Shown one piece after another: positions 1 through 39,108 of a DNA stretch of 64,000 nucleotides (positions are counted from its first letter, which is position 1; every line of letters starts with the position of its first letter). Both the position numbers and the translations under genes were made by a program. The stretch is from Octopus vulgaris (Eukaryota). The stretch covers positions 49,786,001 through 49,850,000 of the forward strand of contig OX597818.1 of the NCBI GenBank assembly GCA_951406725.2. The letters run 5' to 3'. The notes under the pieces are model-generated. The model was given only the letters and a program-made list of their open reading frames with translations, was not told the origin of the DNA and did no database searches.

Positions 1-1614
1 CTGTTGTTGTTTTAAAAGCCCTCTGGTCCTCTGAACTAGCAAAAAGGGTCCTCCATCAGTTTTAATGATGAGTGCTCAGTTATTTGAACAACTGAACTAC
101 CTACTCATTAAATTAGCATGTAAAAGGCTGAGTACTCAAAAAGCACATGTACTCTTAACGTAGTTCTCAGACTAAATTAGCATGACACTGTGACAAAGGA
201 AACCCTTTGAATTGCATGAACAATCCATTTGAGTCTTTCATATTTCCTGTCTAGCCAGTTTCACCTTCAAAGCTTGCCTCAGATGCTATAGAGAAGGACT
301 GAACCTGAGCCCTCATCTTATTGCCAAATCCAACCCCACTTTATTGACATTAGCCCTTTTAAACCAATCCTTCTTCTGTAGAGTGCCAATCATTAGGAAT
401 TTCCTCTTCATCTACATTATTCCCTTAGATATCAGTCTATTAATGTTCAAACTGATTCATATGAATCTCACCAGCCTTGGAGGGCCTGGGAAAGTCATGG
501 GTACTGCACCTTTTCCAAGCTAAAGCAGAAAAGGAAAAAAGCAGTTGTAAGGCTAAAACCACAATGGCTTAAACTAAACACTTTACTAAAGAGCTGTTTT
601 TAGATACAGTTGCAAAATAAATATTCCCACAACTAGAACCAGTTGTGAGACTTGACTACACACCAACATAATTAAAAAACTGTTGGAATTGTAATTGCTT
701 GACAAACGGCTTGCTATAGACCATGTGTTGAAACTGAAACATTTTACAATGTGAGAAAAGTCAACACACACACACGCCCACACACAAACAATATGAAATT
801 TTTTTTGTTTTCTTGACAGTATGCTATAAAATGTCAAAATGTTTTCTTATACACCTATAACCTGGTCACTGAAATGAAATACTTCCCAAGGCATTGTTAA
901 AGATATGAAATAGTTGTTAAGACGTTTCTACAAGGTTTCATACTAGAGCTTCAGAAATATGCTATCTATAGATAGCATATCAAGTAATAGAGATACTATT
1001 TATAGTCTTATCAAGCTTCTGAAGTAGCAATCATACAGACATTTTTCTTAAGATGGTGGGAAAACCAGATTAAGTACAACTGCTATATTTCTAAGAAATA
1101 TAACTATGTGGTTAATGAGTTTATTTCACACTCTTAAGGCTCTAGACTAGATCCCACTGCAGGACACCTTGAGCAAGTGTTTTCTACCACAGCCATGGGT
1201 CAACCCAAGTATTGTGAGTGAAACTGGGTGGATGGAAACTATGCAGAATCTGGCTGAAAATTTAATATAGTACCACTAGGTCCTTAAGTGCTTTAGCAGA
1301 GTCCATTCTGTTGTAAGCATTTAGCTTACATGTCTCTGGTCGGAGGGTAACTCTTGGGCCATGGTTTCAGTCTCAGAGACCTTCCAAATGTCAGGTGGGC
1401 TGGTCCTTCAACCTCTGACAGTCACAAAATACAATAAAAAAGCAGCACAAGTGACCACAGAGAAGTTCCCTTATTGGTTTAATGACTTTGTTGGTTCATA
1501 ATAACAACAGAAACTTTACAAAAAAAAAAAAAAAAAGAAATCACATACAGTTTAGAAAACTTGAAACATTAAAGAAACTATCATCAATTTATTCTGTATT
1601 CTTGATGAACCAGA

Positions 1615-1728
1615 TTTATGATTAAAAATGTTATTAATGGGCCATATTTATGATTAAAAATGTTTTTAATGGACCATATTTATGATTAAAAATGTTTTTA
1701 ATGGAGCAAATTTATGATTAAAAATGTT
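1615..1728. repeat. About 31-bp AT-rich tandem repeat, about 3.5 copies
   Basis: tttatgattaaaaatgtt(a/t)ttaatgg repeated. Confidence 0.8.
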
Positions 1729-2112
1729 CCATACATTACATCTAGAACATTATTTGATGTATGCTTCCTTTTATTTTCAAGATGGCAGGGAAATCTGATT
1801 GCTATTTATAACAAATCAAGTCCCATGTAAAAGGATTGGATTGATTGATATCTCTAACAACCACATTAAGGCTACCATGGCTTCTTGATTTCTTTGTTGT
1901 TTCACATAAGATTGATGTTGAAGGTAGTGGTGATAGAGTATCAGTAAAGTTGACACTTATAGGCATAAACATACAAATTTTATTTGAAATTATTTTCAGG
2001 ATTATATTTTCTGTGTTTACAACATCAAAGAGCATACTCATCAGCAGTTATTTTTCTTCAAAAGTGCTTTTTCCCCACTTAATCTTTGGTTATTATTGTT
2101 GATTAGCTTTAA

Positions 2113-2333
2113 CCCTTTCGTTACTGTATTTCTGTTGAGATGCTCTGTGTTTCTTTCAATTATTTTAAATATAACAAAAGAATTTAGTGAAATAGCTTAG
2201 TTATCATTGAGCTAGTGTTAGGAACATAAATTGTGACTAAGGTTTGGTGGAAGATTTTAATTCAAAACTTATGAAAACAAAACATTTGTACTCAGAGCCA
2301 GAACCGGTTTCAGCTGGGTTGGTAATGAAAGGG
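2113..2333 (+). mobile_element. piggyBac-type MITE (TTAA|CCCTTT...AAAGGG|TTAA)
   Basis: Termini and TTAA flanks; at least five similar copies in the window. Confidence 0.85.
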
Positions 2334-2602
2334 TTAATCTTTGGTTATTATTGTTGATTAGCTTTAAGTCAGCTTTGATTGAACAGACAAATGATCAAAA
2401 GTATTGAGCCATAACCATGCATATTCTCAGCCTCATAGTATAGCTAGGAGTACATTCTCCAATGTTACCTTCCACGTTTGAGAAAGCAGAGTGAGGTTTG
2501 AAGGAGATTTGGCAACTATTCATAGCAAGTCCAGTGACTACATAGAGTTTTTTGCTCTTGTAACTTTCTAGTATCTTTCAGTTACCATTTTGTATAAGTT
2601 GA

Positions 2603-2966
2603 CTGGCACCATTTGAGCATGGCCAATGCTAGTATCGCCCGACTGCCACCTGTGCTGGTGGCATGTAAAAAGCACCATTCAAGTGTGGCCAATGCCAGTG
2701 CCACCCATGCTGGTAGCATGCAAAAAGCACCATTTGAGCATGGCTGGTACCAGTGCCACTTGACTGGCTCCCGTGCTGGTGACATGTAAAAAGCACTCAC
2801 TACACTCTTGGAGAGGTTGGCGTTAGGAAGGGCATCCAGCTGTAGAAACTCTGCCAGATCAGATTGGACCCTGGTACAGCCTCTCAGCTTGAAAGTCCTC
2901 GGACAAACCATCCAGCCCACGCCAGCATGGAAAGCGGACATTAAACGATGATGATTGATGATGATG
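2603..2966 (+). mobile_element. Repeat family C: minisatellite-bearing retroposon with (GAT)n tail
   Basis: GGTTGGCGTTAGGAAGGGCATCCAGCTGTAGAAA...GCATGGAAAGCGGACGTTAAACGATGATG; about 20 copies, e.g. 7960, 11709, 12745, 20505, 22981, 29878, 33170, 39381, 41067, 43995, 46484, 48063, 53074. Confidence 0.82.
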
Positions 2967-3546
2967 AATTTTTAAAAATCATAGTTGGTTGATGGCTTTA
3001 TAAATAAGTGATGACTAGAAATCTTACTAATGCATAACATCAAATATTCTTGGTTTGTTTGCATAAATCAAGGATTGCATTATTCAGAGATTAAACATTT
3101 TGTTTCTAGAATCTTTTCTAGAAAGATTCTAGAAACAATATTTTTTCAGTTCAGTGTATAGTGTATATAGTGACATCATTTGTTATTTACTTACCCTCAG
3201 ACATAAACAATATTAAACATAAAAGAAGAATTAAATATGAAATATTTATAATGAAAACATGCTTGTTGAGTTTCATGCAGAGAATGTTAAATAACAAAAT
3301 GGATTTAAAGAAACTGATTCATTAAAAGAAGAGTTTTAGAAAGTCTTATGAAATATTTATAGATAAACAATGTTAATAAAAGCTGTTATTTCAGAACTAA
3401 TGCAAAAAAAAAAAAATAGTGTAAGGACGCATGCATATTATTAGGTAAAAGAAGCAGAAGATTTCATGCATATATAAATATCTAAAGGACTTAAGGACTT
3501 CCAGGAGAAATTTATAACAAATGGGCCCTATACACCAAATCCTTAC

Positions 3547-3594
3547 CTGTACAGGTGCCGGGTCAACCAAGGGGGGATCATTCCAGCCTGAATG
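3547..3594 (-). CDS. SEC31: Sec31 micro-exon 23 ([16 protein letters not shown])
   Basis: 48 nt, phase 0-0, acceptor tttttatctctgtag, donor CAG|gtaagg, second WNDPP. Confidence 0.85.
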
Positions 3595-3844
3595 CTACAG
3601 AGATAAAAATGGAAGTTCTACAAGGGATACATTTATAGTGCACAAAGCTAAATTTAATAAGCATAGATGCAAAATACTTTAGATTTACATTCTCTTCGGG
3701 ATAGACTTTGTCAATTAGAACTTGGCATCTTGGAGTCTTTTTTTTCTCACATTGCAGACTTGTGGAACTTTTGATTTAACTGATAAGATGTACATATTCC
3801 TGGTTTAGTTATACAGCACACTCATTTCATGTTCTGAACCCAAT

Positions 3845-3902
<58 letters not shown>

Positions 3903-6900
3903 ATGATAGATCGTTAGCCACTACACACATTTTTTTCTCTGCTTTTTTTCTCTCCTTGTTTTTTCTGTATCCTTTTCTGTAGAAGAGCGCAGGCTCGAAA
4001 TGTAAAAGACTTTTTCTATTCCTGAGCGTTATACTAATACACCTGTTTGTTTTGTACACCACCTGTCTTCGTCTTTTGTTTTTTTCGTAAACTCTCCCTA
4101 TATATATATAAATACACCCAATGTTGGAGTGAAGATTTACTTAGGTTAAGAAAGATCAAATGATAATCAGTAACAGAACAACTGAGATACACCAGTCACC
4201 ATAAGCTCTCACCAAGTCCAATAAATAAATACACACACACACACCCACACACAGAGGTATAATATGATTAAGAAGTTCTTTGCACCACCACAAAGTCCTG
4301 GGTTCAATTCCATTATGTGGCCTCATGATCATATGTTACTATATGTGTAGAAGCCTATTGGGTGGATTATTTCAGCAGTTCAAGAAGGCACAGCCTTGTC
4401 ACACCCTGTGTCATGCTGGCTCTGCCTGAGAATTACAATAAGGGTACACATGTTTGGAATACTCAGTCCTTTACACATTAATTCAGGAGCTGGTAATTTG
4501 GTTGATTGAATAACAGAATCTTTGTTAATAGAAATCCACTATTACACACACACACACACAAACACACAAGTCGTTATGTTGATTTGAGCAAGGTTAATTA
4601 TATATTTTATAGTTTCATTATTTTGTACATCAACTCCAAAACAAAGTATATTTATATACACGAAATGGATTAATTTTACCCTATTCAAATCACTACATCT
4701 TCTTTTTATCATTTCCCATCTAAAGCTAACCAGAAATTGTCAACTAGTTTATTGGCAGTGTGCATGCTATCACAATCTTCAGTCTTTATTCATAACAGAG
4801 CTGTATATCTCCTTTAATGTCTTCTATAAATATTATATAGGTTTTGATGTTTCTAAGTTGGCAGTCTGTTTATTGCAGTTGGCTTATCCCCATCCTATGA
4901 TGTATTATTCTTGTTTATATCATTTGAAGTCAATCATCAGGGCTTTGTTTCCTACTCTCATATATCCAAATAAACATTAACTGCTCTGAACACACTATCT
5001 TTGATGCAAAGCTAGCAGTCATGGACCAAAATAGTAATGAGACAATCCAGAGTACATCTAGAAAAGGGCCCTTAACTGACTGACATAGAGTCACTCACAG
5101 ACATGCTTCAACCACTGATTCTTAGGCACGCTGTCTACCCCCTCTCTGTCTCTTATACTGCTACTATCTGGCTTTTGCTCCTCAGAGCTGCCTGGGCTCA
5201 TGCAACTCTCAAGCATTCCTATTTTGCTCACCTCTCTTTTCCTCATCACTGTTGTTGTGTTCAACTCCCTAAGCTTCACACTAATCACTATGCAAGTCCT
5301 TCCGTCCCAGAACATCAACTCTTTGGAACCTCTCCCGAATGCCCTTCCTGCTCTATCTTTCCAGCAAGTGTTTAACATACAAAGGTTTAAGAGTACCATT
5401 AATGGCATCAATCTCACCAGTCTAGAAGGCCCTGCAAAGGCCACAAGTGCTGCCCTTTCCTTCGAGCCAGCACTTAGGGAAAAAAAATGGTTACAGATAT
5501 TGAGATTGATAACTCAATACAAATGTAACTACCACATTCTCACAAGGGAAATATTGTATAAAACCTTAAGGCAACGCAGGCATTAAGTGCAGAGGTAACT
5601 AATAACCACATTCTAGCTTGCATTAAGCAACATTTGCAAAATAATATAACAAGCAGGAAAAATTATTTTATCAATTGTTGAAAACATAATATAATAGTTT
5701 TATAAAATAAATTTTCTTTTGTTAAAATTTTTAAAAAATACACAAAATCATTAACTGTTATTTACATGTCAATTAGTTTGTCTATTATTTGGAAATGTTA
5801 AATGAGATATATACATCTATATAATACTAAAAGTCTGTGATTGCTTGCTTGCGTGCTTAATACAGCCAAACTGGCGCATAATGGGAAAAGCCTCTGAAAG
5901 TAAGATACCCCTGAAATGTGAATACAAACAGAGTAAAATAAGTTTTGCATAAATCGGACCAAAGATTCCCAAGATACATGGTTTTTGTGGGTTTGTTTCC
6001 ACAAATTGAAGCAGTGGAAACCTGGAGTTATTGCCCTTTATTGTGTAGTCCCCCTGAAATGAGAATACAAATTGAATAAGACAAGTTCCATGTAAATCAG
6101 ACCACAGTTTCCTGAGACACATGGTTTTCTCAGGTACCGTTATGATTGCTTGTTTGCATGCTTGCTTGTCTGTAATTTAATAGTCAAACCGGTGCATAAT
6201 GAGAAAATACTTTGAAAGTGAGGTACCATTGAAATGGGAATGCAAACAGAATAAAACAAGTTTCATGTAAATTGGACCGCAGGTTCCCGAGATATGCAGT
6301 TTTTTTGGGTACCTTGAATTATTGGTGACCCAACAGGTCATAGGTAATCTAGTACATATATATATATATGTATCCTTAATGAAGAATTATTTTATGAATG
6401 GACAATATTTACTCCATCTAATTGTAGTAAATATTAGCTATTTGTTTAATTTTCTAGATTATTCATAGTTAATTATAAAGATTACTCTTAACTCAATGGA
6501 ATATTTAAATATAAAATATTTTATAGTACTGCTAACGGTGTATTTATATTTTGTTCTTTTTCAATCGTTTGCTTTATTTCCACTGCTTCGAACCATTGCA
6601 GTTGAAACAATAAATTAACAGTGGTTTAAAAGTTAAAAAATAGTTCAAAACTAAACTTCAATTTTGTCGTTTCCATTTGTAGTGTTCTTCAGGTATACAC
6701 ATTTTTCAACATACTTTACATCTACTGAAGTGAATTTTTTCCACTCCAGTAGTGAATATTATGACATATTTAGCTATAAAATATATACATTATTATACAT
6801 ATTTATAAATTTGTAGTACCATAAAATTTCTATTCCTATTGGAAAGTAGATTTATAATTTTACAAGACAAATTCTTGATATTCAATAGTTTTTTTTTCTT

Positions 6901-9900
6901 TGTCAACAAACTGGTAAAATCTGTTTTATATTATCAAGTATTATTATCAAAGTTAAGGTAGATAAATGAAAAATTTTTGCCTTTCTTTGACTTTCTTTAT
7001 CAGTGATTCATCTCACCTTTATCTATTAAATATTTACAGAACCTGCAAATGTTTTAGATTGGATTTTGTTCTAACATTTGCCCCAAGTAAAATAGATATC
7101 TTAAGACATTCTAAACTGCTACGAAAAGTTCTCGGGCAATATTTCACCCCCAAACACTGGAACAGATACGGAAAAAAAAATGTTTAGTCTACAATGATGT
7201 TCAGCATGATTCTTATTAAAATGTTATTCATATACTATCTATTGAAAAATGTTCTATTATTTCAAATATAAGAATTTCTAAACAGAAGTTCGCCAAGGAA
7301 ATAACCAGATTAATTTGCAGTTTTTCCTTAATCTACGTATGTTACTTTGAAAAAAAAAAACATGTTAACATAATTTTTATTAAGTGTAACACACAACCAT
7401 TATCATAATGGTGTTTATTGATCTAATTCAGTTTATGACATGTTGCTTTGTGTTGTGTTGTGATTTGTGACACAATCCAAATTCAATTCAGTGAAACAAG
7501 TGCAAATCAAGAGAAAAATTCAAGAGAACAAGGTGAAGTTAACATTTTCAAACTTGTCTGTTAGTAAAATGATATGAAATCATAACAATTAAAATTTTTT
7601 TTAAATATTAAAAAATTTTCCTCTGTGATTTTAGTTTGTAAGGAACTGCAAACAACACAGACTATTATAAAAGTAATAATCATATGCCATAAAAAATATC
7701 AAGCTTATAAATAAAAGCTTTAACTTTTATATAACTGTAATCCGCATTAGTAGACAAAGGTCAAAGAATAAGAGAGAGACTCTGCTATTATCCTTGCAAA
7801 AAAGTATTCTCTTCCTCTATAAATATTGTACTTCAGTAAGAAATTAATAATAATGGTAATTGAGGTAATCAAAGAGTTTTCCCAGTAACATTGGTTACAT
7901 GACACACAGCAATTTAAATTTACTTTTACCTTGAAACTATATTTCATCATTTCGCCTTACTAGCACTTGTACTGGTGGCACATGAAACATTCGAGCGAGG
8001 TCGTCGCCAGTGTCGCTGGACTGGCTCCTGTGCAGGAGGCACATAAAAAGCACCATTTGAGCATGGCTGTTGCCAATACCACCTGACCGGCCCTCGTGCC
8101 GGTGGCACGTAAAAGCACCCACTACACTCTCGGAGTGGTTGGCATTAGGAAGGGCATCCAGCTGTAGAAACTCTGCCAGATCAGATTGGAGTCTGGTTCG
8201 CCAGACCTCAGTCAAATCGTCCAACCCATGCTAGCATGGAAAGTGGACGTTAAATGATGATGATGATGAATCTTAAGTTATTGTATTATGTTATTTTCAT
8301 TAGTAGTATATGTATCTATAAATTTCGGCCTTCATTATATCAACAGGCTTACACGAGCAACAAAGTAAAAGAAGCACTTAGCACCTGAGTACTATACAAT
8401 AAGCTCATTACTATTTATTATTATTACTATTTTGTGGAAGGCAGAAAGCCGGCACAATTGTTACCATGCCAGACAAAATGCATAGTGGCATTTCTTCTGG
8501 CTTTACATTCTGAGTTCAAATTCTGCCAAGGTCAATTTGGTATTTAATCCTTTCAGGGTTCGATGAAATAAGTTCCAGTTCAGTACTGGGGATGATGTAA
8601 TCAACTGGCCATCTCCCTCAAAATTTCAAGCTTTGTGCTTAGAGTACAAAGGGCTATTACTATTTTGGAGATCAGAAAAATGATAATCACATATTATAAC
8701 ATGTAACTCTGAATAAGGTGTGAGAGAAACTGCTAAACCCAATGTGGTGATCTTTTACAATCAAGATTCCTAAAAAGCTCTGAGAAAAAAAAGCTATTTA
8801 ATCTGAGGCAATTATTGATCCAGTAAATTTACGAGCAAAGGTATTCAAACCCAAATTATCCAATCTTTATTTCAGACTAAAGTATAACTGGTGTAATTGT
8901 TATCTAATGTGCTTTTGGCTACTATTTCTGGTAGGTTTCATGACTGCATAGTAATTCACTAGCTGTTTTGAAGGAAAAATATTAAAATTACTACATATTT
9001 TTAGCAGAAAAAGTAAGAAGTTACTTTTGTAAATCCCTAAAGCAAACATAATACAAAAAGCTATTTGTAATTCAACCATCAGAATAAATATACATGACGA
9101 TACTAATTTAGTGTTAGTTATCTGTAACAAAACATCTCTGAGAATATGTTAATAGCAATTTCAATGAATAAATTCTGATGAGATGACAAAATAATGAAAT
9201 TACAAACATTTAATTTTTGTTTCTCAATTGATTTGTTGAAATGACAGCATGAAAGATAATGAAGAGAAAAATGAATTGTTACATCAATAATAAAAGGTCT
9301 AGTTGAGATGTGAAAAGTGTTGCAGTGTTTTTTACTATATAAACAAGCAATCTAAGAACCATCACATTTTGGTAAAAGATTCTTGTCAAGAACCTTTATA
9401 TCACATTATAAAAGAACTTTCTGCAACAAAAACTAAATACATAATTAGAAAAGAAAAAACACAAAATGCTTTGCAAAATAGGATACGAGACCAGTGTCAC
9501 ATTTTAGATTTGATTGACTTACACGTGAGTTGTTCACATTATCTTTAAACACAGGTGGATCATTCCAAGGTGTGTTAGGTTTCATTTCTTGGAAGGAAGG
9601 AATATCTCCCATTGGAGCAGAAGCTTGTGGAGCCACTAGAAAGCAGAAATATCAAAATGAAAAGATGTCTAAAATTGCCAATGTATAAACAACTTTTAAT
9701 ACATTAAATTACTATAACATTTTCAGTATGAATGTTTTTAACAAGAAAAACAAATGGTTTTTTTGTGACAATTTGCTTTTGGGTTTCAATAAGTTGACTA
9801 CTTTAATTGTATAATTGATGTTCTGCAAGTTAAAAGACAGAGATCAGACAAATGATTACTTGTTGATGTTATTTGGTTTGGGTGCAGATGTGACTTATGG

Positions 9901-10236
9901 TTAAGAAGTTCACTTCACATAACAATCATGTGGTCTTGACTTCAGTCCAATTGTGTAGCATCCTCTGAGTCTTTTATTGTGGACCAGAGCTGACCAATGC
10001 TTTTTGAGTCAATTTGCTAGACAGAAACTATATGAAGCCTGTCGTGTGTGTGTGTGAGTGGGTGCAAATTTATATCCTGTGAACTTTGAATGAAAAAGCT
10101 CTGAGCTATAATCCTCAAGGTTTGTTCTTTTCCTCTTAACAAGTTTGCTGGACCTGTGCTCTTGAGGATGTATGGATTAAAGGACCCATTACTTGAAAAA
10201 CAGGTAAGGGTTAGCAATATATAGGGTATTTGGCTG

Positions 10237-10275
<39 letters not shown>

Positions 10276-13200
10276 GACATCTAATCCTTGCTAACTTAGA
10301 AAGCTAAGCACATTTGTAGAATAAATTATAAATTTATTCAATTTTTTTAATGTTTTACACAACTGACAACAATGATCTGTTTTGTAGTTTATGAGTATAT
10401 TCATGTCTCAATGCATAAAATAATTACTAATTTCTCAATATATTTGGGTTGAAATTTTTATGAAGGTTTGGCACGTATATGTAACAAGATGAAATGATGG
10501 GGATCTTCTGACTGTATATGTTTAAATTAAGATAGTTGAGACCCCCTTCTGTCATGAATGACCATGGGATTGCACCTACAAAGTTACACTCCGAGGCACA
10601 AGTCTGGGCAAGGTTGTTTATGGAAGGCCAGCAGTCACCCATGCATACCAGCCTCCCCTCTCCATGCCACCAGTGTTATCCAAGGGAAAGGCAAACGGGC
10701 CAATACAGCTTGGCACCAGTGACATCACAACTCATTTCTACAGCTGAGTGAACTGAAGCAATGTGAAATAAAGTGTCTTGCTCAAGAAGACAACACGCAG
10801 CCCGGTCCAGGAATCGAACTCAAAACCTGACGATCATAATCTCGATGCTCTAACCATTGAGCCATGGTTAATCATTGAGACAGTAAGTAGAGACAAATGT
10901 AGAAGCCCCAACTTCAGATCTTGATTCTACATAAAAGTTGTAACTTGTTCTTGTAGACTTCTGATAATGTGTTTGTTTTCCCATATATTTTTGTTCTGCC
11001 TGTTAATGTCTATCATGGATATCACATTATTATGCTAGTAACCAAACCATACTTGCTAAGCTACTCACCTATAATTTAAGACTGAAACATGTGGATGCAA
11101 TGTTAGAATTGGAAGAAACTGGTTAAGCGATGCATTCTGCACAATACCAATATGCTACATAATTTCATAGAATTTTCTTCACTGGTTTCTGGTTTTAAGC
11201 AAGTTGAAAAATAAACAATCTCTGAGAAAAAGTAACACTCAAATGATATGAATCAAAATCATGATGTATCTCAAGATACCAGTATCCACCCTGTTATGTA
11301 ATCATTAACACATGCACCCTGTCAAAACTATTATGATACAACACTTGCATATTATTACATAGGACAAAATTAAATATTTTACCTGGTGCTGAATTTGGAT
11401 TGTATACATTGGATGGCTGCATTGGTTGTTGTTGATGATAAGTATTTGAAGTTTGGTAAGAATTTGGACTAAAATATAGAAGAGAAGAGATTATTGTTTT
11501 AATTACTGAAAGGTGCAATTTTAATTAAAATGCAGAGAAATAAAAAGGTGATTTCTTGTATATTTCTGTAATATAAGGAATCAATTCATTCCCAAAATCT
11601 AATCAGAAAGTTCTAATTTTTTTTCTAAATGAATAAGCAAAAATTATAAAAATAGTCTACAGGTAAATTCTTGAATTTATGTAGTCTTTCTTTTTTTTTC
11701 TAAGTACTCACATCATCATCATCGTTTAACATCCGCTTTCCATGCTGGCATGGGTTGGATGATTTGACTGAGGTCTGGCAAACTAGATGGCTGCACCAGG
11801 CTCCAATCTTGATCTGGCAGAGTTTCTACAGCTGGATGCCCTTACTAACGCCAACCACTCCAAGAGTGTAGTGGGTGCTTTTACATGCCACCAGCATGAG
11901 GGCCAGTCAGGCGGTACTGGCAACAACCTCACTTGAATCTTTTTACACATGCCACTGGCACAACTCTTTAATAAAATTTATATCAAAGTCTTGTATAGTA
12001 CAATTCCGCTGAGAAAAGGTTATGTCCTTATATAACACCAAAGAAAAGTAAATCAACTGCATGAAATTAGAATTATGTCCTCTAGACAACTCCTGCTCAA
12101 AAAGGCATTGTTACTAACCATGACATTGTCAGCAAAACCCCTCCACCAAAATCCTATATCAACTTATCACAGAACCCACATATAAATAGCCTTTACTAGC
12201 ATGTTAGCTACAAAATGAACACATTTGATAGTTAATCTGTAAACTTTGATAATGACTGAGCAACTGCCAAAAAAACAAGGAAGGAAACAGAAGATGCTTT
12301 GGGCCATCAAGTCTGTTCATTGATAATTAATGAAGATAATGACTTCAACCATATGGCGTCTGAACAGGGGCTATAACCATACAAGGTACCACATATGACA
12401 CTTTCTGTGTGCTGAAAGTGTGGTGATACTTCATTGCTGCATATGTGTATAGTAGAGGACACCAGCCAACGGTGTTCATGTAGGGGATCAAACCTCTGAC
12501 CATATAGTTTCTAGACGGGAAGCTTGCAATGCAACTTGTGGAGTCCATGTCTTGCTTGTATATTCCACTTTTTGATATATTTTTATGTGGTTAGATGCTC
12601 TTTTTTTCATCATACAGAGTCCTCTGGGTGTATTTTATCATGCCACAAGTAGAAGTGAGCCTGTTTGTGACAGGACTAGGGAACACCTTTCCACACCCTC
12701 AACCCTGCATCAGTTTCTATTTGGAGCTACAGACTTCATTGTTTCATTTAAAGCCTGCTTTCCATGCAAGTATGGGTTGGACGATTTGACTGAGGACTGG
12801 CAAACCAGATGGCTGCACCAGACTCCAATCTGATCTGGCAGAGTTTCTACAGCTGGATGCCCTTCCTAACACCAACCACTCCGAGAGTGTAGTGGGTGCT
12901 TTTACATGCCACCGGCAAGAGGGCCAGTCAGGCGATACTGGCAATGGCCATGCTCAAATGGTGCTTTTTATGTGCCACCTGCACAGGAGCCAGTCCAGTG
13001 GCACTGGCAACAATCTCGCTCGAATGTTTCTGAAGCATTTTCCTTATTACTAATTTAAGAATGTAAAAAAGCTTCCGATGTTAACTTATATAAAAAGTGG
13101 AGTGAAAACTAGCATTTCACTTTAGAGTGAGTAAACACTTTTGAGTTTCTACAAGGCTTAAGTGAAACTCACAATGGAATCCTGCTCCTATATCTGGGAT

Positions 13201-15031
13201 GCTGCTGCTGCATTCACATGAATATCCTAAATCATATCCAAAGGAAAGTCATCTGGTTGGTCGATAAAGTTTTACTTGCCAACACGCCAATCTCTGGCTC
13301 GTAGACACATTGTCTCTTTACTTTTCCTTTCTTATTTCTTTATTGCCCACAAGGGGCTAAACATAGAGGGGACAAACAAGGACAAACAAAGGGATTAAGT
13401 CGATTACATTGACCCCAGTGTGTAACTGGTACTTAATTTATCGACCCCGAAAGGATGAAAGGCAAAGTCGACCTTGGCGGAATTTGAACTCAGAATGTAA
13501 AGACAGACAATATACTGCTAAGCATTTCACCCGGCGTGCTAATGTTTCTGCCAGCTCGCTGCTTTCCTTTCTACTACTAGTTATACACACACACTCTCTC
13601 TCTCTCTCTCTCTCTCTCATTAGCTATACTATGTCTGCTTCTCCAGAACATGCATCAACCACAATTCCCAATCATCTGAGTTCTCTTGCAATTTGTAAGG
13701 TCCAGTCAAGGTTCTGAGCACAATCTTTTTTTTCCTGACTAAACAATAAAAATAAAGGATAGTAGTAATAAAATGCAATAAACAGTAGTAATTTGGAAAT
13801 TTTAATAATATATCTCAATATACAAACCTAGGATAACTCTGTTGTTGGTATGAACTTTTATTAGAATAATCTGGATTTAAGGCAATGGTTTGGTTGTAGT
13901 TTTCCATTCCATAACCAGCATTTGCAGAACCAGAATGGGTACGATATTTTTGTGCTAAAGGACCTGAAAAATAGAGTTAAGTCAAGTATTTTCCTTCATG
14001 CTGTTTGAGTTACATAATATGTTTCCAGAACCATTCTCCCAAGATAAAGAGAAAGTTGTAAAAATCCTTCTCTCTCTCTCTCTCCACATGCTAGAAGTCA
14101 ACTCAAGATTGACAAAGACCCCTGCTTAGATAAACTTCACTGTAAAAAACATTTTAAGTTTGGTTTCCCCATTGCTGATAATAATAATAATAATAATGAA
14201 ATTATTGTATACAGTGCTCAGGTGCACCACAACTTGTCAAAAGTGCATATAAAGTACATGCAGTAATGTACAAATGTCTGGAAAGCGAACAGTGTATGAG
14301 TCAGATACATGCTTGTGTATGTATGGAGGGGATAAAATCAGGTGTAGTGTTGGCGAATCTCAGGAAGCATGGAAGTTTTGAAGGATGCAGTGTTCCGACA
14401 ACTAACAACTGATGCCGGCAGTTTGATGATGGCTCACATGGCTCCAAAGGCCTGCAAGGCACTTAGGAGTTCTTTCACACAGACCTCAAATCAGCCTTCC
14501 AGCAAAAGTTCAACCATCTGGATGTTGGGACCTACAATGCTGAATGAGTCCACTAACTGACCTGCACATACTGCTACACAAGGTGTGAGAGAACATGCTG
14601 GTTATCAGTGTAGGCAAGGGAACCTACATGATCAGGTTTGGGGCTAAGGAGGCCTGCCTTGAGAAGCAGACACAGCCACACTGATCACGCACACATGCAC
14701 ATACACATATGTAGCCCATAGCTTATAGTTGAAGACATCAGGTAATAGTGTCTAGGCAATGAAAACGAACTCTAAATCATGTGGTTTTGAAACAAACATT
14801 TTAACCACATGGCCATGTCATCATGTGTACACACACACATTTATTAAACTTTTACAAGAGAGGCGCAGGAGTGGCTGTGTAGTAAGTAGCTTGCTAACCA
14901 ACCACATGGTTCCGGGTTCAGTCCCACTGCGTGGCATCTTGGGCAAGTGTCTTCTGCTATAGCCCCGGGCCGAACAATGCCTTGTGAGTGGATTTGGTAG
15001 ACGGAAACTGAAAGAAGCCTGTCGTATATAT

Positions 15032-15073
<42 letters not shown>

Positions 15074-15979
15074 GTTTGTGTGTCTGTGTTTGTCCCCCTA
15101 GCATTGCTTGACAACCGATGCTGGTGTGTTTACGTCCCCGTCACTTAGCGGTTCGGCAAAAGAGACTGATAGAATAAGTACTGGGCTTACAAAGAATAAG
15201 TCCCGGGGTCGATTTGCTCGACTAAAGGCGGTGCTCCAGCATGGCCGCAGTCAAATGACTGAAACAAGTAAAAGAGTAAAGAGAGAGAGGAATCTGTGAC
15301 ACTGAAGTTTCAACACACTAAACTCCGTTCGATTGTAAGCCCTTGTAAAAGTTTAAAAAGCAGGTGCTCCATTAAAAATGCATTGAGTAATTCCTCAATT
15401 TAGTGTTTAATTGTTTTCATACATAACTTGACATAAAAACTAACATTTACGCACACACACACACAAGCTGGCTGATATGTGAATAAACTTTGTGTATTTA
15501 TGCTTCACTCCAAGATTTTATTTCAAAGTAATTAGTATAAAAACAATTTAGAGATAATTATCATCAATAAAAGTCACTAGTATAATATATATATATAGGC
15601 GCAGGAGTGGCTGTGTGGTAAGTAGCTTGTTTACCAACCACATGGTTCCGGGTTCAGTCCCACTGCGTGGCATCTTGGGCAAGTGTCTTCTGCTATAGCC
15701 CCGGGCCGACCAATGCCTTGTAAGTGGATTTGGCAGACGGAAACTGAAAAAAGCCTGTTGTATATATGTATATATATATATGTGTGTGTGTTTGTCCCCC
15801 TAGCATTGCTTGACAACCGATGCTGGTGTGTTTACTTAGCGGTTCGGCAAAAGAGACCGATAGAATAAGTACTGGGCTTACAAAGAATAAGTCCTGGGGT
15901 CGATTTGCTCGACTAAAGGCGGTGCTCCAGCATGCCACAGTCAAATGACTGAAACAAGTAAAAGAGTAAAAGAGAGTAA

Positions 15980-16028
<49 letters not shown>

Positions 16029-19000
16029 AAGAGAGAGATAGTAAAGATCTTACCTTTAGACATTGGGGCACCAGTTGATGGAGCCATCATAGAACTCATA
16101 TGTGTTGGATAAGATGGAATTTGTGGTGCGGCAGCTGAACCATTCGTACTAGGATACTGATTTTGTCCAAAATATGAACTAGGGGTAGTCGTAGTTCGAA
16201 ACTGGCTGATTGCTTGAACCTGAAATAAATTCAAAATGGAAATCAACAATATTAAATGACATTAACCAAATACAGTGTCAACAGAGATTCTATAAACTCT
16301 ACTTAACCCTTTTGTTACTGTATTTATTTTGAGATGCTCTGTATTTCTTTCAATTAATTTTAAATATAACAAAGACTTTAGTAAAATAACTTAGTTATCA
16401 TTCAGCTAGTGTTAGGAACATAAATTGTGACTAAAGTTTGGTGGAAGATTTTAATTCAAAACTTATGAAAATAAGACATTTGTACTACAGAGCCAGAGCT
16501 GGTTTCAGCTGGGTTGGTAATGAAAGGGTTAAGAATTGTTTCTCTATCATATATTTTAACCCTTTTGCGACCATATTTCTGTTGAGATGCTCTGTGTTTC
16601 TTTCAATTAATTTTAAATATAACAAAGAATTTAGTAGAATAACTTAATTATCATTAAGCTAGTGTTAGAAACACAAATTTTGACTAAGGTTTGGTAGAAG
16701 ATTTTAATTCAAAACTTATGAAAACAAGACATTTGTACAACAGAGCCACAGGTGGTTTCAGCCGGGTTAGTAACGAAAGGGTTAATTACTTTAAATTCTG
16801 AGGGGTTTATGTTTATTTACTAGCTGTCAGAAGAGAAAAGGTAGCAGTTGTTGCCTTTTCAGGGTATTTGTAACTGGGGAAAGTTATTTTGAGATCAAAG
16901 ACCTGCCCAAATGTCCACTAAGGACCCCCAGGTGCCAGGCGTTGATATTAAAAAGTGTATCTACTACACCAATTTTTTTTTTTATTTTGTGAAATTTTGG
17001 CTTAAGATTGAGTTGGACAATATTATATAAATTTAATAAACGATATTAATGATTAATTAATAAGCGTGATTTTTTTTGCATAAGTTATCCATTCTTCAAG
17101 AATCCAAGCTAGAGTTGTCAGAATTTTATTTCACTTACCTAATTGCTTTTCTATGTTAAGTGTAGAGCAGTCTATCAATCACCATAAAACAAACATAAAA
17201 TATTGTTACCATTTGCTATCATGTTTAAATCATCATCATCATTTAATGTCTATGTTCCATGCCGGCACAGATTTGCTAGACAAAAGGCTTAGCGGCATTT
17301 TGTCTGTCTTTACGTTCTGAGTTCAAATTCCACCGAGGTTGACATTGCCTTTCATCCTTCCAGGATTGATAAATTAAGAACCAGTCAAGCACTAGGGATT
17401 GATGTAATTGACTAGTTCCCCCTTAAAATTTCAGGCCTTGTGCCAATAGTAGAAAGGATTTTATTAATTATGGAATATTGTGAACGTCTGTGAAGGTGAT
17501 AATAAAATTTTATGTATAAGAGTGTTCACAATATTACTTAATAAAGTCAATATTTTGTTAGGTGTTAATTCATCATTAATTAATTAATGACTCAATGTCA
17601 GTTTGAAATGGTGACATTTGTTTCCTAAAATGCTTTTAGAAATGATAGGAATTGCAAAAATATGAAAATTCACTTCCTCATAACTTAAAAAAAAATTGCT
17701 TTCAGGTACAGGTTTTGATGAAAGACAGAAAACTAAAACTTCAAAAGACAATTTACTTCCACTTATAAATACCTATTTCTTTACTACCCACAAGGGGCTA
17801 AACACAGAGGGGACAAACAAGGACAGACAAACAGATTAAGTTGATTACATCGACCCCAGTGCGTAACTGGTACTTAATCTATTGACCCCGAAAGGATGAA
17901 AGGCAAAGTCGACCTCGCCGGAATTTGAACTCAGAATGTAACGGCAGACGAAATACCTATTTCTTTACTACCCACAAGGGGCTAAACACAGAGGGGACAA
18001 ACAAGGACAGACAAACGAATTAAGTCGATTACATCGACCCCAGTGCATAACTGGTACTTAATTTATCGACCCCGAAAGGATGAAAGGCAAAGTCGACCTT
18101 GGCGGAATTTGAACTAAGCACGTAACGGCAGACGAAATATGGCTACGCATTTCGCCCGGCGTGCTAACATTTCTGCCAGCTTGCCACCAATTATAAATAC
18201 CAATGATACAAACATACTACTAACATTGGTATCGCCGGTTTTAATACCCACTCCCAACCTCACACACACACATTTAGTTAAGGTGGGGTTTTTTTTCCTG
18301 TAGCCTTCTTTCTGTACTTTTCTTGCCTTGCAAGCTACTTGGCAATTTCCCAAGTACTGATGGCATAAAAAAAAGTACCCACCACACTCTGTACTGTGGT
18401 TGGTGTTAGGAAGGGCATCCAGTTGTAGAAACCACGCCAAAGCTGACATTAGAATTCAATGTGACACTATGGCTCACCAGATCCTGTCAAACTATACAAT
18501 CTATGACAGCGTGGTAAACAAACATTAAATGATGATAGTGATGATGATGATGATGAAGATGGTGATGGTGATGGCGATGATGTCAAATATTGCACTGACT
18601 TAAATTCAATAAAAAACAGAAAGTGTAAAACCTCGTTAAATTTGACCTGTTGTGGGTTCAATCCAAGTCTTTGTTCTTCCTGTTGTTTCTGGAAAGATTG
18701 ATTCTGTTGCAGATTCGGCTGGTACAAATTTTGTGGCGCTTGTCCATAAGCCTGTTGGGGTTGTGACGCTTGATAAGGCTTTTGTTGTTGATGTAGTTGT
18801 TGATGTTGTTGATGATGTTGTTGCTGTTGTTGTTGCTGTTGTTGTAGTTGCTGCTGCTGCTGCTGTTGTTGTTGTTGTTGTTGTTGGCTCCTTTGAGCCC
18901 CTTCTGGAAGGATTTCGACTTTTTGAAACGGAAAAGCTGGTTGTTGCACACCCGCTACATTCCCATTGAGAGCATGAAACAAACGGTCCTTCATTGAATC

Positions 19001-22000
19001 TAGGGCAGGCTGGGAACAGAAAAAAAATTACATGAATAAGAATAAATAATTACAAACAAAACTTAAAATAAGATTTATAATTTACATAGTGCTAGTGCAT
19101 GTATATACAGCTGTGTGCGTGCGCACATACACTCGAGTACTGTCCAAATCTCCGACCAATCACATACAGCTAGCTGGCATTCAATTGGCGTATCAAGTTT
19201 TTGGACATTTTGATTGGGTTTTGGATAGAAAATTCACAAAAATGTTGATTTTTTTAATGGCTTTGCGGGGTGACTGGAGAAATGTAAAGATGTGCACGAC
19301 CACCCTTGGACGGTTTTGAATGACCATAGAAAGTGTGAGCCCTCTAACTGAAAAATTGTGGATTTGTATAAAGGACACGCACACACAGACAGACATTTTG
19401 CCATTTATATATATAGAGAGATAACTTTCAGATAGAAACAATACTATAAATCAATGTTCCATTTTTACTAAAGAAGATACTGTTACTTAAAATTTAATTC
19501 ATAATTACCCCTGGAAATGAGTTCATGTAATTAATGGCAGTATTCAAATTTCCTTGTGCAGCAAGAATTGAGGCATATTTGCAAAGTTTATCAGCAACTA
19601 ATCCTTCTTTTATTGGTATTTCTTGGCCTTGAGAAAATTCAACAGCTTTGCGTAATAACATGACTTTTTCAACCAGGTCCTAAAATCGAAAGAAAAGATT
19701 GTAAAATAGAATATTTCAATTAGTCAATGTATACATTTGTAGTCACCGTTGATGTCATTATTCTCTGTCTTAACTTGAAAAACTTCAAAATTTTCCCTTT
19801 TTCCTGCAATTTCCGACAAGTTAAAAAAAGATATAAAATCCTTTATCAGTTATACTAACCTGAAGAGCTGAGGGCTCATTTGCATTCTGTGAATTTTGTT
19901 GCCAATTTTCAACAAGTTTTTCAACATTTCCCGAACAAATATAACACAAACTAGCATTGACTGATGATTCCTTCTCAGCTTCAAGTCGACTTCCCAAGGA
20001 ATCTAAAGAAGAAAAAAAACAAAACATTTCATTATATTTTCATTATTGCAAACAAAAAAATGAGAAGAGATACAAAATCTAATTTAGTTGTGAGAGTTAA
20101 TCTGAAAATTAAATTGAAATTGGAAATTTAGAAGTTTTATATGAAACAATTACAAATAGGTGCTGGAGTCATATAAAAAGCACCCATGTTGGTGTCACAC
20201 AAAAAACACCTGTGCAGGTGTCATGTAAAAAATCCCCAGTACACTCTATAAAGTGGTTGGTGTTAAGAAAGGATTCAGCTGTAGAAACCTTGCCAAAACA
20301 GACAATTGGATCTAGGTGCAGCTCTCTGGCTTGCCAGCTTTTGTCAAACTGTCCAACCCATGCCGGCATGGAAAACAGATGCTAAATGCTGCTGAGAATG
20401 ATGTATGAGCGAACAAGAGAGCCTATACAGGTCAAATTTCACTCAAACTACACCCTACCATCTTAAAAAGAAAGGACGACTTTGATTATAGGTTTGTTTG
20501 AAATCATTCAACATCAATGGAAATTGTAGCTGTGATACCAGTGCTGGTGGCACGTAAGAGAACCATCCGAATGTGGCCGTTGCCAGCGCCGCCCCGACTG
20601 GCCTCTGTGCCGGTGGTACGTAAAAAGCACCATCCGATTGTGGCCGTTGCCAGCCTCGTCTGGCACCTGTGCAGGTAGCACATAAAAAGCACCCACTACA
20701 CTCTCAAAGTGGTTGGCGTTAGGAAGGGCATCCAGCTGTAGAAACACTGCCAGATCAGACTGGGCCTGGCGCAACCTTCTGGCTTCCCAGACCCCAGTTG
20801 AACCGTCCAACCTATGCTAGCATGGAAAACGGACGTTAAACGATGATGATGATGATGATAGGAGACAGGAGGACCAACTGCAACAACATAAAGTATTTCA
20901 GAATATATAAAAAAATTAAGGCATGCTATATGATTAAGAAGTTCACTTTGTAACCATATAGTTTTGAGTTCAATCCTAGTGCAAAGTACCTTGGGCAAAT
21001 TTCTTCTACTATAGACCTAGGCTGACCAATGTTTTGTGAGTGAGTTTGGTGGATAAAAAACACTCTGTGTGTGTGTGTGTGGAGAGATATATGTGTATGT
21101 GTGAGTGCACGCATGTGTCTGATGTTTTTCTTTGACTTGACATTTTAAGGGTCACCAGACAAAGTCACCAATCAGACAAACGGTGTCACTTATTTGCAAT
21201 CTTTCATGAAAACATGCCCAGCCATTGGGTTGCTGCTTTTTCGAAGAACTATAGGAAATATTGTCTCATTTGGAGACAGATGCGGGTTGGCAATAGGAAA
21301 AGCATGCAACAATAGAAAACCTACCTCAAACAAGTTTCATCAGGCGCAACAAGTATGGAAGAGTAACTGTTAAAACAATAATGATGATCATGAACACTAA
21401 AGGAAAGTCAAGTAAATAATTGAAATTATAACTTACCACATAGAAAAGAAAATTCTTCTGGAGAAGTATATGTTATAAGTACAGCTAGAGCTTCTTTCCA
21501 GTTCTCCAGGTTACAGGTTTGAATGACATGAGTCCAGTCATGAGTCACAATTGATGAAATTAACTGAAGAAGAACAGAATAACCATTATCAAATCAGCAT
21601 ATTTATTTTATATATATATGTATATAAAAATCAACAATTAAAAAAATATATACTGGGAACAAAATGAAAGAAATTGATCTTTGGTCTATTCTATTATAAT
21701 CATAATTCTGCATAACACTAATTTAATTTTGATGCTGAATTCAACAATTTGCGAAAGATGGCAACAGCTCTCATGTTAAATATCCAAATGGACATGGGTT
21801 ATAATCCTAATTCTGCATAACACTAATTTAATTTTGATGTTGAATTCAACAATTTGCGAAAGATGGCAACAGCTCTCATGTTAAATATCCAAATGGACAT
21901 GGGTTATAATCCTAATTCTGCATAACACTAATTTAATTTTGATGTTGAATTCAACAATTTGCGAAAGATGGCAACAGCTCTCATGTAAAATGTCCAAATG

Positions 22001-25000
22001 GACATGGGCAATATAATTTTTACTACCTTTGAAAACTAAAAATTGCCATGTATCTCCTCTATAGCAAGACACCTTTGCTTGTCACCCTGTCATACTTTAG
22101 CCTCTCAACAACTGGCATAAAGCCAGCTCTATCTCTCTCAAACATTCACCCCACTTACTCTCTCTTTTTTACTCTTTTACTTGTTTCAGTCATTTGACTG
22201 TGGCCATGCTGGAGCACTGCCTTTAGTCGAGCAAATCGACCCCAGGACTTATTCTTTGCAAGCCTAGTACTTATTCTATCGGTCTCTTTTGCTGAACCGC
22301 TAAGTTACGGGGATGAAAACACACCGCCATCGTTTGTCAAGCGATGTGGGGGGGGACAAACACAGGCACACAAACATATACACACACATACATATATATA
22401 TACACATATATACGATGGGCTTCTTTCAGTTTCTGTCTACCAAATCCACTCACAAGGCTTTGGTCAGCCTGAGGCTATAGTAGCAGACACTTGCCCAAGG
22501 TGCCATGCAGCGGGAATGAACCCGGAACCATGTGGTTGGTAAGCAAGCTAGTTTTTTTAAATTATATTTTATATCTTTTTACACCTTTCCCTGCTTTGTT
22601 TTTCTGTCAAGCAAATTACTTGGCAACCTCAATAGTGCCAGTGGCACAACCCCCCCTCCCATTACACACTGTAAAGTGGTTGGCGTTAAAAAGGGCATCC
22701 AGCTATAGAAACCATGCCAAATCTGACACTAGATCCTGGCACAGCCCTGCAGCTTGCTGGATCCTGTCAAACCACCCAACTCATACCAGCATGAGAAATG
22801 GATAAAAAAAAAAAAACGATGATGATGACAGCCATTTAAAATAAGGCCAGGTCAATTGAACATACAGTTGCCAAATAAAGATGTTTGCTGTATTACCAAA
22901 ACACTGCTTTTAATGATATTGATTTCTGCACACTGGTGCATAGCAATGGTACATAGAAATGTCCATTTTTAAGGGATGTTATCATCATCATCATCATCAT
23001 CATTGTTTAACGTCCGCCTTCCATGCTAGCATGGGTTGGACGATTTTGACTGAGGGCTGGCAAACCAGACGGCCGCACCAGGCTCCAATCTTGATCTGGC
23101 AGAGTTTCTACAGCTAGATGCCCTTCCAAATGCCAACCACTCCGAGAGTGTAGAGGGAGCTTTTTATGTGCCACCGGCACGGGGCCAGTCAGGCAGTACT
23201 GGCAATGACCTCACTTGAATCTTTTTACACATGCCACCGGCACAGGTGACATTATGCTGAATATGAAAGTTGGCTTACTCGGCTCAAAGAACTGTGATTA
23301 GTGCTGAAATATTTATTCTGTGTACGTCGAAGCAAATCGGGACCACCTGCTATGGCAAGTAAAATAGCTTCAGCCATTTGATTTTCATGAAGACACATCT
23401 CAACTGCAGCTTCAAAATTGCCCATTAATAATGCTTGACTAAGCAAGCCATTTGCATCTGAAATAAAAAGAATTATTACTTTGTAATTATTAATGTATCT
23501 TATTCAAAATATACACAGCAAGTTATTATGTAGCATAAATCAGTAAACTGGATTATCGTATTTCATAAATATGTCATTGGATAGATGGATGGATGGATAG
23601 GCGGGCTGACAATATGGAAAAACAAAGCATTTGCTGCTTGTTTGTTTGTTATTGAGCAAAGCGGTCTTCGTCCCAGTGGGAGAAGTCCGAAACGTGGTCC
23701 TTTGCTATTCGTAAGACCCGCAGAATAGAAAGCAGGTCAACCCCCAACACCAAGAGCATCGATGGATGGATGAATGCGCATCCAGGCTCAGCGGTTGCAT
23801 AGGAAGTCGGGGGCAAGAAACAGGAAGAAAGAGTGAGAGTAAGTTGGAGCGAAAGAGTACAACAGGGGTCGCCACCCCCCCCTGCCGGAGCCTCTTGGAG
23901 CTTTAAGTGTTTTCGCTCAGTAAACACACACAACGCCCGGTCTGGGAATCGAAACTGCGATCCTCCGACCATGAGTCCGCTGCCCTAACCACTGGGCCAT
24001 TGCGCCTCCACAGCATTTGCTGCTGAAATTAGAGTTATTAAAGTATTCAAACTTTCAATGAAGTAAACTAATATTACCAATAATTTTGAATGAATTCCAT
24101 TATGAGAATGAAATTATGTAAATATATATAGTTAAAAGAAAAACTTCAAGGAACATTTCTATTTCTTTATCATCATGTAATAAACATAAGACAGGATCTT
24201 TACTTTTTGACCGACAGATTTAAAAAATAATTTTTTGTAACTAAACACTTTCAAACTTCGGATACTGGTAGAATGTGTCATATAAAACATCTTTTACTCT
24301 TAGCATTTTTGAGAAAAACTTATATTTACAAAGTTATTTCATGTTAAAGTTCTCGTATTTCTGTAATTTCAACCAATCAATGACATGTATTCAGCTGAAT
24401 AAAATTGCTGCTGTTGTTTGTCAACAACAACTATTGGCAGTGTATTTTTCATTTGTCACTGTTATTTATGACAACCCTAAAACCCTAACTCTAACCTTAA
24501 AACCGTAACCCTAACCCTAAAACCTTAAAGCTAAAACCAATACAAACGCATGAACGATGTCATAAATAACGGTGACAAACGAAAAATACACCGCCGATAG
24601 TTGTTGTTGACAAACAACGGCAGTAATTTTATTCAGCTGAATACATGTCATTGATTGGTTGAAATTACCGAAATATGACAACTTTAACGTGAAATAACTT
24701 TGTAAATATAAGTTTTTCTCAAAAATGCTAAGAGTAAAAGATGTTTTATATGACACATTCTACCAGTGTCTGAAATTTGAAAGTGTTTAGTTACAAAAAA
24801 ATTATTTTTTAAAATCTGTCGGTCAAAAGGTAAAGATCCATAAGACAATATACAAACCTGAATTAGTGGATATTGTGAGGGGAGTTCTTGAGCTTGATGT
24901 ATCTGATAAACTTGAATGAGCTGGAATAGGCATTGGGGATTGTGATCCAGACAGATTCCGTTGTTGCAAGGTAATATCTTCAAATAACGAAGATGCTTCA

Positions 25001-34000: not shown

Positions 34001-35382
34001 TCCATCAAATGAAGCGCTTGAAATAATTCCAGGATTTCGAGGGCACCATTGGACATCAAAACTCCACTGATTACTGGTTTCTAGTTCACAAACAACCTAA
34101 AAACAGAAGAAAGATTTAAAAAACTGAAGTCAAACTATACAATACAATATTATGTAATAAAGTAACACATTTTCTGGAGATATATGCAACATAAAATATG
34201 AGTTAATTTTAAAAGAGTAACAAATATTAATTTCACACCTCTGCTGGCCCCACATGAAGCACCCATGTCAGCACCTTGTATAGAGTACCTGTGCCGGTGT
34301 CGTGCATAAAGCACTTGTGTTGGTGTTACATAAAAACCACCTGTGCTAGTCATCATCATCATCATCATCCAGTGTTTTAAATCCAGGTTTTGTCCCCGTT
34401 AAAAGGGGTGGCTGGATCTACCTCAATGCCATAGCAACTGAGGTAGGCGGGTGCAGCCCACCTCAACCTTTGGGCTGGCTGGTGCCCATTCTCCTTTGCT
34501 ATCATGAAACTTTTTTGGAGCTGGATTCTCTATGGGGAGCATATCCTTGCTTACTCCCCAACCTCAGTTTCTAGACATGAGTGGTCATGAGACCAAGGCC
34601 TCTACCACAATTTTTAAGAAATGTGGTGGAAAATTAGCTCAGGAAGGCTGGGACGCTACTCCTTGAGATCCCTTTCGGAGCCCCCTAGTCTGTCATGTGA
34701 AAAGCACCCAGTACACTCTGTAAGGTGGTTGGGATTAGGAAGGGCATCCAGCCACAGAAACTAAGCCAAAACAGATGACTGGAACCTGATGCAGCCCTCT
34801 AGTTTACCAGCTCCTGTTAAACCATCCAACCCATGCCAACATGGAAAACATGATAATATGCTGAAATGATGATATGCTGAAACTCAAAGATAAAGACTGC
34901 ATCATTGCAAATGATATTGAGAAATTAATGGCAGAGTGTTTAATATCTCCAATCATTGATGTAAAAGCCTTTATTTTAAACTAGTGTTACCCATCAGATG
35001 GCAAGTAACTTTGGAAGTATACTTTTGCTACAATGGGCAATACCAGGAATTGTGGTATGCATATGCTTATAATTTAACTTTAACAAATTTCTTGGTGCTT
35101 ATACAAAATGCTGAAATGAATACTAATTTTCGAGTGAAAAATATTTATCATCTTTAAAAAAAAATGAAATATAACAAATTTTTCATTTCTCTTTTACTTG
35201 TTTCAGTCATTTGACTGTGGCCATGCTGGAGCACCGCCTTTAGTCAAGCAAATCGACCCCGGGACTTATTCTTTGTAAGCCCAGTACTTATTCTAATCGG
35301 TCTCTTTTGCCGAACCGCTAAGTGACAGGGACGTAAACACACCAGCATCGGTTGTCAAGCAATGCTAGGAAGACAAACACAG

Positions 35383-35433
<51 letters not shown>

Positions 35434-35621: not shown

Positions 35622-35658
<37 letters not shown>

Positions 35659-36813: not shown

Positions 36814-36857
<44 letters not shown>

Positions 36858-39074: not shown

Positions 39075-39108
<34 letters not shown>

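Follow-up and report, generated by a model that had tools for sequence, protein, structure and literature searches.

A 48-nucleotide optional exon carries a second WNDPP motif in the Sec31 gene of Octopus vulgaris

Sec31 builds the COPII coat (coat protein complex II) and sets off its release, and how the moment of GTP hydrolysis by Sar1 is set for each cargo and cell type is an open question. The active fragment of Sec31 is known from yeast as the part that stimulates GTPase-activating protein (GAP) activity (PMC7594496). We analyzed a 64,000-nucleotide (nt) stretch of the Octopus vulgaris genome (assembly GCA_951406725.2, contig OX597818.1, positions 49,786,001 to 49,850,000), called the window below, which contains a Sec31 gene on its minus strand. 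Positions 3594-3547 were confirmed as a real cassette exon of Sec31, 48 nt long and in phase 0-0, that is included in some assembled sequences and skipped in others and encodes a second WNDPP motif. We favor, at a probability of roughly 0.55, that its inclusion would change which motif engages Sar1-Sec23, and thereby GTP hydrolysis, rather than double the activity.

Splicing of the cassette exon

In the six-frame translation of the window, WNDPP occurs only twice, both times on the minus strand (Table 1). An earlier note, made from the sequence alone, had placed the first copy in exon 22 and the second on a separate phase 0-0 exon of 48 nt, 5.9 kb downstream and with strong splice sites. The first exon is real, at 9635-9523, but it is the 23rd coding block of our tblastn map and not the 22nd. 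The description of the second exon held, as the intervening intron measures 5,928 nt and the cassette is flanked by a pyrimidine-rich TAG acceptor and a CAG|GTAAGG donor. The distance between the motifs, put by the note at about 18 residues, is exactly 18 from W to W in the inclusion isoform, and the W-N-D core of the Sec31 active fragment is present in both copies. The next exon starts 1,249 bases beyond the window (L002:8751) in phase 0, so that the reading frame is kept with inclusion as well as with skipping; it codes for the active fragment's C-terminal half. By its length (48 nt, within the limit of 51 nt), its canonical AG/GT sites and the preserved frame, the cassette belongs to the micro-exons.

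Six of 24 catalogued sequencing runs were examined as assembled contigs, which are presumed to be RNA. Over window positions 3000-11700, four runs were searched: the upstream joint 11383-9635 was found in all of them (X1, X3, X13 and X9), and the GT-AG joint 9523-3594 in X1, X3 and X13, not in X9. The 3′ end of the micro-exon was joined to the next exon in three of four runs (X1, X17 and X24), and the cassette of X24 carries one synonymous change. Run X9 (study P3) joins 9523 directly to the next exon, in a contig of 1,473 nt whose positions 587-699 correspond to exon 9635-9523 and 700-828 to the next exon; it also yielded an unspliced contig of low depth covering 3547-3742 (196 nt). Altogether, inclusion was seen in five of the six runs (X1, X3, X13, X17 and X24; studies P1, P2, P4, P5 and P10; organisms A, B and C) and skipping in one, a proportion that is not an inclusion rate because the runs had been picked for holding a mostly intronic stretch. 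Runs X1, X17 and X24 gave no contig with the exon skipped and X9 none with it spliced in, although contigs drop rare forms and cannot show absence.

Contigs thus splice into 3547-3594, and the exon can be skipped, switching Sec31 between one and two WNDPP motifs as the earlier note had proposed. Three other interpretations were rejected. The spliced joints and the conservation in decapodiform proteins described below rule out a chance open reading frame or pseudo-exon; the skip in X9 and nine single-motif cephalopod proteins rule out a constitutive exon; and a mutually exclusive pair is ruled out by the inclusion contigs, which hold both exons.

Table 1. Positions of the cassette exon and of related features in the window
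Feature	Positions	Strand	Remarks
Cassette micro-exon	3547..3594	minus	48 nt; phase 0-0; second WNDPP; W codon 3585
Exon with first WNDPP	9523..9635	minus	113 nt; phase 0 end; GTAAGT donor; W codon 9567; in both isoforms
Upstream intron	3595..9522	minus	5,928 nt; GT-AG; joint 3594-9523 in X1, X3, X13
Downstream intron	1..3546	minus	continues beyond the window to exon L002:8751-8623 (G000:C5:49784751-49784623)
TGCATG, candidate RBFOX site 1	3465..3470	minus	about 77 nt past the donor
TGCATG, candidate RBFOX site 2	3430..3435	minus	
TGCATG, candidate RBFOX site 3	3274..3279	minus	
Sec31 gene (COPII outer coat)	1..57482	minus	27 collinear tblastn blocks; query Argonauta Sec31A-like P0001

Three TGCATG hexamers lie within 300 nt downstream of the cassette, compared with none or one at each of 26 other exon ends of approximate position. 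With a gene-wide density of 0.41 per kb, the Poisson probability of at least three is 2.9e-4, and 0.15% of 6,510 sliding windows reach that number. For human micro-exons that are alternatively spliced, TGCATG is the one motif enriched in the 3′ flank, and downstream binding of RBFOX promotes inclusion (PMC4317164), and fly Rbfox1 recognizes it as the conserved Rbfox site (PMC8742874). The octopus exon has the UGCAUG in the downstream intron that marks RBFOX-regulated exons, and the trio plausibly fits a control of inclusion in nerve or muscle. We also considered an eMIC/Srrm-dependent microexon, the signature of which is a UGC near the 3′ splice site together with a long AG-exclusion zone (PMC8797185). 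This type of control is not supported: upstream of the acceptor, the first TGC is 48 nt away, and a further AG ends at a distance of 23 nt.

Conservation in cephalopods and survey of other Sec31 proteins

In Sepia pharaonis, a 16-residue cassette containing WNDPP occupies the corresponding position of CAE1306985.1 (P0042) and is absent from CAE1306987.1 and CAE1306988.1. Forms with and without the cassette are also present in the cluster of P0003, which we call decapodiform-like because it is 79% identical to the Sepia cluster, versus 59% to Argonauta. Nine of the 18 cephalopod Sec31 proteins of at least 750 residues have two motifs and nine have one, and all five aligned isoform pairs differ in the 16-residue cassette alone. 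Judged by these alignments, an orthologous optional cassette is common to an octopod and two decapodiform lineages. All 10 two-motif sequences (the nine proteins and the octopus gene) have the same spacing of 18 residues, and G-W-N-D-P-P-L-V-D is invariant in every copy of the second motif (motif 2) compared, octopod and decapodiform. The octopod cassette is identical to that of Sepia at 11 of 16 positions and to that of P0003 at 10 of 16; in the same octopod-decapodiform comparison, the matching end of the preceding exon reaches 9/18 and 10/18, the next exon 45-52% and the two earlier exons 42-55%. One other exon of the disordered region, at 80-82%, is better conserved than the cassette. Upstream of the active fragment, segments of 19 and 21 residues are also optional in decapodiform Sec31 and vary independently of the cassette (P0060/P0058 versus P0003/P0057; P0044 versus P0002).

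We infer that the cassette arose in the coleoid ancestor when the 3′ part of the exon before it was duplicated, an origin read from the protein alone because the two exons are identical at only 22 of 48 nucleotides. There was no Octopus or Nautilus Sec31 protein among the protein-search matches, and the age of the exon is therefore bounded only as coleoid; it was not seen in other molluscs.

We then compared 306 non-cephalopod Sec31 proteins of at least 750 residues, many of them isoforms or close relatives, from molluscs, annelids, a brachiopod, nemerteans, chelicerates, insects, echinoderms, hemichordates, amphioxus, cartilaginous fish, lamprey and cnidarians. One motif was found in 291, none in 14 and two in a single protein, Lingula P0102, which was rejected as a tandem case: its identical copies lie far apart, at 679 residues, in an over-long model. 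This leaves no tandem WNDPP among the 306. A wider set of 150 representatives clustered at 50% had one strict motif in 68, none in 82 and two in 0, but only 94 of them reach the C-terminal domain, which makes this set weaker than its size. A weaker line of evidence is a word search directed at the tandem region, which gave only three candidates, all cephalopod. In these collections, tandem WNDPP has so far been seen only in coleoids. The exon is thus not constitutive, given the skip in X9, and tandem WNDPP is not general to Sec31 (0/306 and 0/150); as contigs also splice into the exon, none of the findings that the earlier note had named as fatal to its proposal applies.

Two observations on the motif itself came from these searches. 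In eleven Sec31 proteins, of which the named ones are cnidarian (P0140, P0143, P0156, P0157, P0161-P0163, P0175, P0185, P0166 and P0183), W-K-D or W-S stands where others have W-N-D, and the Asn to which catalysis is ascribed in yeast is therefore not present in every Sec31. Elsewhere in the octopus genome, an exon-like stretch codes for GWNDPP after an AG (L018; G000:C16:39302638). It may resemble the N-terminus of SRA1, although PF07304 had no match across the genome contigs (2.8 Gb, 227 contigs). Among homologues of the Sec31 C-terminal domain, the folded domain of SRA1 comes closest, and SRA1 itself has been called mammal-only and functionally unrelated (bioRxiv 10.1101/2020.06.18.159608).

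Other bilaterians have optional inserts without WND at the junction occupied by the cassette, 11-15 residues past the W, between WNDPP and a downstream P-I-T element. They measure 23 residues in amphioxus (P0135/P0123), 26 or 6-8 in termites and cricket (P0181/P0217/P0218 of Zootermopsis; P0176/P0237/P0238 of Gryllus), 7 in Lineus (P0298/P0119), 3 in Mya (P0250/P0113) and 2 in Babylonia; in termite and in cricket, a skipped form exists alongside two different inserts. Other isoform differences of mollusc Sec31 lie about 40-70 residues past the W. To go by these public gene models, which were not read-checked, splicing at this Sec31 junction is recurrent across bilaterians and not special to cephalopods. 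No paper describing such inserts was found.

Predicted effect on Sar1-Sec23

In yeast, W922 and N923 of Sec31 insert at the active site of Sar1-Sec23, within a fragment of about 50 residues that binds with nucleotide-dependent affinity and speeds hydrolysis (PMC7594496, PMC6175875, bioRxiv 10.1101/2020.06.18.159608). The role of W-N at Sar1-Sec23, which the earlier note had given as known, is accordingly in print (PMC7594496, PMC6175875). There is one such site per Sar1-Sec23, and two cores would therefore be unable to act on one unit together. The human active fragment spans residues 967-1036, with its W at 1008 (PMC12265942), which places the P-I-T element inside the C-terminal half of the fragment.

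Spacing to this element distinguishes the isoforms. A P-I-T-type element follows the W by 19-27 residues in 80 of the 85 non-cephalopod proteins in which it was found; this range, like the basic tail considered below, was derived here from homologues. With the cassette included, in P0042 and P0003, the element lies 19 residues after the W of motif 2 and 37 after that of the first motif (motif 1), and with the cassette skipped it lies 21 after that of motif 1. The translated octopod exons yield identical distances. Motif 2 on inclusion and motif 1 on skipping thus fall within the range, and motif 1 on inclusion falls outside it. The residue before the W is Pro in motif 1 of all cephalopods compared (window 9567-9570, minus strand), as in 0/105 and 1/68 of the other sequences; in motif 2 it is Gly, the common residue elsewhere (46/105 and 44/68).

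Inclusion of the 48-nt exon gives the active fragment another WNDPP core. On inclusion, motif 2, with its Gly, would take over the downstream half of the fragment at normal spacing and become the main register on one Sar1-Sec23 unit. Motif 1, with its rare Pro, would keep the upstream flank and, tethered as a spare, would increase rebinding. The net outcome would be a shift of affinity and GAP stimulation, and we prefer this to a simple doubling because of the spacing, inclusion pushing motif 1 from 21 to 37. In neurons or muscle, inclusion would be favored by RBFOX bound at the three UGCAUG sites behind the cassette. Splicing of the cassette is likely to retune export from the endoplasmic reticulum. 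A bolder version seems doubtful, in which RBFOX-driven inclusion in coleoid neurons or muscle would supply two working W-N cores, able to reach two neighboring molecules of Sar1 or to recycle on a single one, and would thereby set coat lifetime and carrier shape by cell type.

Several observations weigh against the favored explanation. Full-length yeast Sec31 lacking the whole active fragment has no growth defect (PMC7594496), so that the effects may be small. Motif 2 has an Asp at +7, where none of 105 other sequences has one and D/E occurs in 3 of 68, and its net charge over the next eight residues is 0, 0 and -1, short of the basic tail of +1 or more that follows the motif in 104/105 and 57/68 of the others. 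The acidic position and the missing tail could weaken motif 2. The octopod motif 1 likewise has a net charge of 0, so the contrast between the motifs is weak in octopus. The inserts without WND in other bilaterians may mean that spacing alone is regulated. The conservation comparison covers just 16 residues, five of which are the motif, and the DNA of the cassette shares little with that of the preceding exon. The TGCATG cluster was first spotted by eye, with four motifs counted and the other exon ends approximate. Finally, that the runs are RNA is a guess, and their contigs lose rare forms.

Some of these points would suit a different role, in which the cassette mainly parts the first WNDPP from the downstream half, as the unrelated inserts of amphioxus and insects would do, and motif 2 is weak or a decoy, giving less GAP stimulation and a stabler coat. 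We regard this as a tentative possibility. It agrees with the optional inserts at the junction in five other lineages, with the Asp at +7 and the net charge of at most 0 after motif 2, and with the importance of charge-driven contacts in coat assembly (PMC7594496). Against it, GWNDPPLVD is unchanged across octopods and decapodiforms, which a mere spacer would not need, motif 2 restores the normal distance to the downstream element, and a net charge of at most 0 also occurs in 11/68 single natural motifs.

It is improbable that the two motifs of one Sec31 chain sit on two neighboring Sar1-Sec23 units of the inner lattice and double the activated Sar1, even with W-N-D-P-P intact in both copies and a spacing that never varies among the two-motif sequences. 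The COPII outer-coat rod measures about 28-30 nm, and a stretched chain covers 0.36 nm per residue. Such bivalency would agree with coated tubes, in which the outer-to-inner ratio is 1:2 and only half of the inner subunits are bound via the known Sec31 interface (PMC3778437). However, four inner heterotrimers span one outer rod (PMC3778437), or about 7 nm per unit for a rod of 28-30 nm, and 18 residues reach about 6.5 nm only if fully stretched, at or short of that distance. The downstream half, moreover, would be available to one copy only.

Least probable, if only slightly so, is a second copy that serves some partner besides Sar1-Sec23, or that is tolerated as a backup without effect on coat turnover. 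The tolerance of full-length yeast Sec31 to loss of the active fragment (PMC7594496) would allow it, and the GWNDP-coding stretch at L018 suggests that the motif is used outside Sec31. Yet the cassette is conserved above the flanking disordered exons, skipping is kept in all three lineages with data, and a TGCATG cluster is present, all of which point to a regulated function at the Sar1-Sec23 binding site.

The Sec31 gene and comparison with known systems

The assignment of the gene to Sec31, with its N-terminal WD40 propeller followed by the ACE1 solenoid, the proline-rich region and the C-terminal helical domain, is based on tblastn collinearity and orthologue matches. With the Argonauta Sec31A-like query, the start codon was placed at 57482 on the minus strand, and the blocks follow in order, 23 in the window and four past its left edge at -1249, -2385, -5017 and -7649, so that the last four coding exons lie outside. 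The best named match to one exon is Argonauta hians Sec31A-like, at 92% identity, and P0003, the decapodiform-like orthologue, has matches to human Sec31A (7sul_A; 4.9e-130) and to yeast Sec31 (1e-61). The Argonauta model gave no tblastn block at 3594-3547. A genome search with exon 9635-9523 found no match besides the exon itself, and its peptide matched no PDB chain.

One Sec31 exon encodes a long Gln/His-rich tract (window 18640-19010, minus strand). High-copy interspersed repeats lie in introns at 7947-8528, 10275-10856 and 3873-4163, with very high contig depth in 4/4 runs. Two intronless open reading frames of the Arf family were noted elsewhere (L021, G000:C3:164618208; L022, G000:C2:100513683), which we take to be Arl4-like and Arl6-like, respectively, and neither of them Sar1.

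We found no description of a repeated WND or of this cephalopod exon in the literature searched, which was mostly open access and excluded supplements, where exon tables may stand. The public record does hold the orthologous cassette of Sepia pharaonis CAE1306985.1, as an unannotated isoform difference with no name or function. Like the yeast active fragment (W922/N923/L925), the cephalopod sequence has its W-N-D core in a proline-rich region ahead of the C-terminal helical domain, but yeast Sec31, as far as these sources go, has one W-N motif and owes its multivalency to PPP motifs and charge clusters (PMC7594496, PMC6175875, bioRxiv 10.1101/2020.06.18.159608). The inserts of amphioxus, termite, cricket, Lineus, Mya and Babylonia are likewise optional at this junction; unlike the cassette, they hold no WND and only lengthen the spacer. 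In length class (at most 51 nt), alternative inclusion and TGCATG in the 3′ flank, the cassette resembles the RBFOX-regulated micro-exons of Li et al. (2015; PMC4317164), which were described in human brain.

The closest parallel is exon 24c of human SEC31A (Ostwaldt et al. 2025; PMC12265942). At 39 nt, it is likewise short, frame preserving and alternative, and it alters the Sec31 active fragment, with a proposed change of Sar1/Sec23 contacts and cargo export (PMC12265942). Exon 24c lies over the beginning of the fragment, ahead of the only WND, and contributes no further WND; it is controlled by RBM47, with high inclusion in liver and gut and low inclusion in brain (PMC12265942). The cephalopod exon, in contrast, lies downstream of the WND, brings a WNDPP of its own and has RBFOX-type sites. 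Alternative splicing in the Sec31 active fragment is hence a known kind of variation, and repetition of the activator core by splicing is so far known only from this exon. An isoform pair that differs only by a second W-N core and is kept in both main coleoid lineages offers a natural test of motif number and register, and a recurrent splice junction inside the active fragment across bilaterians generalizes the result obtained with human exon 24c.

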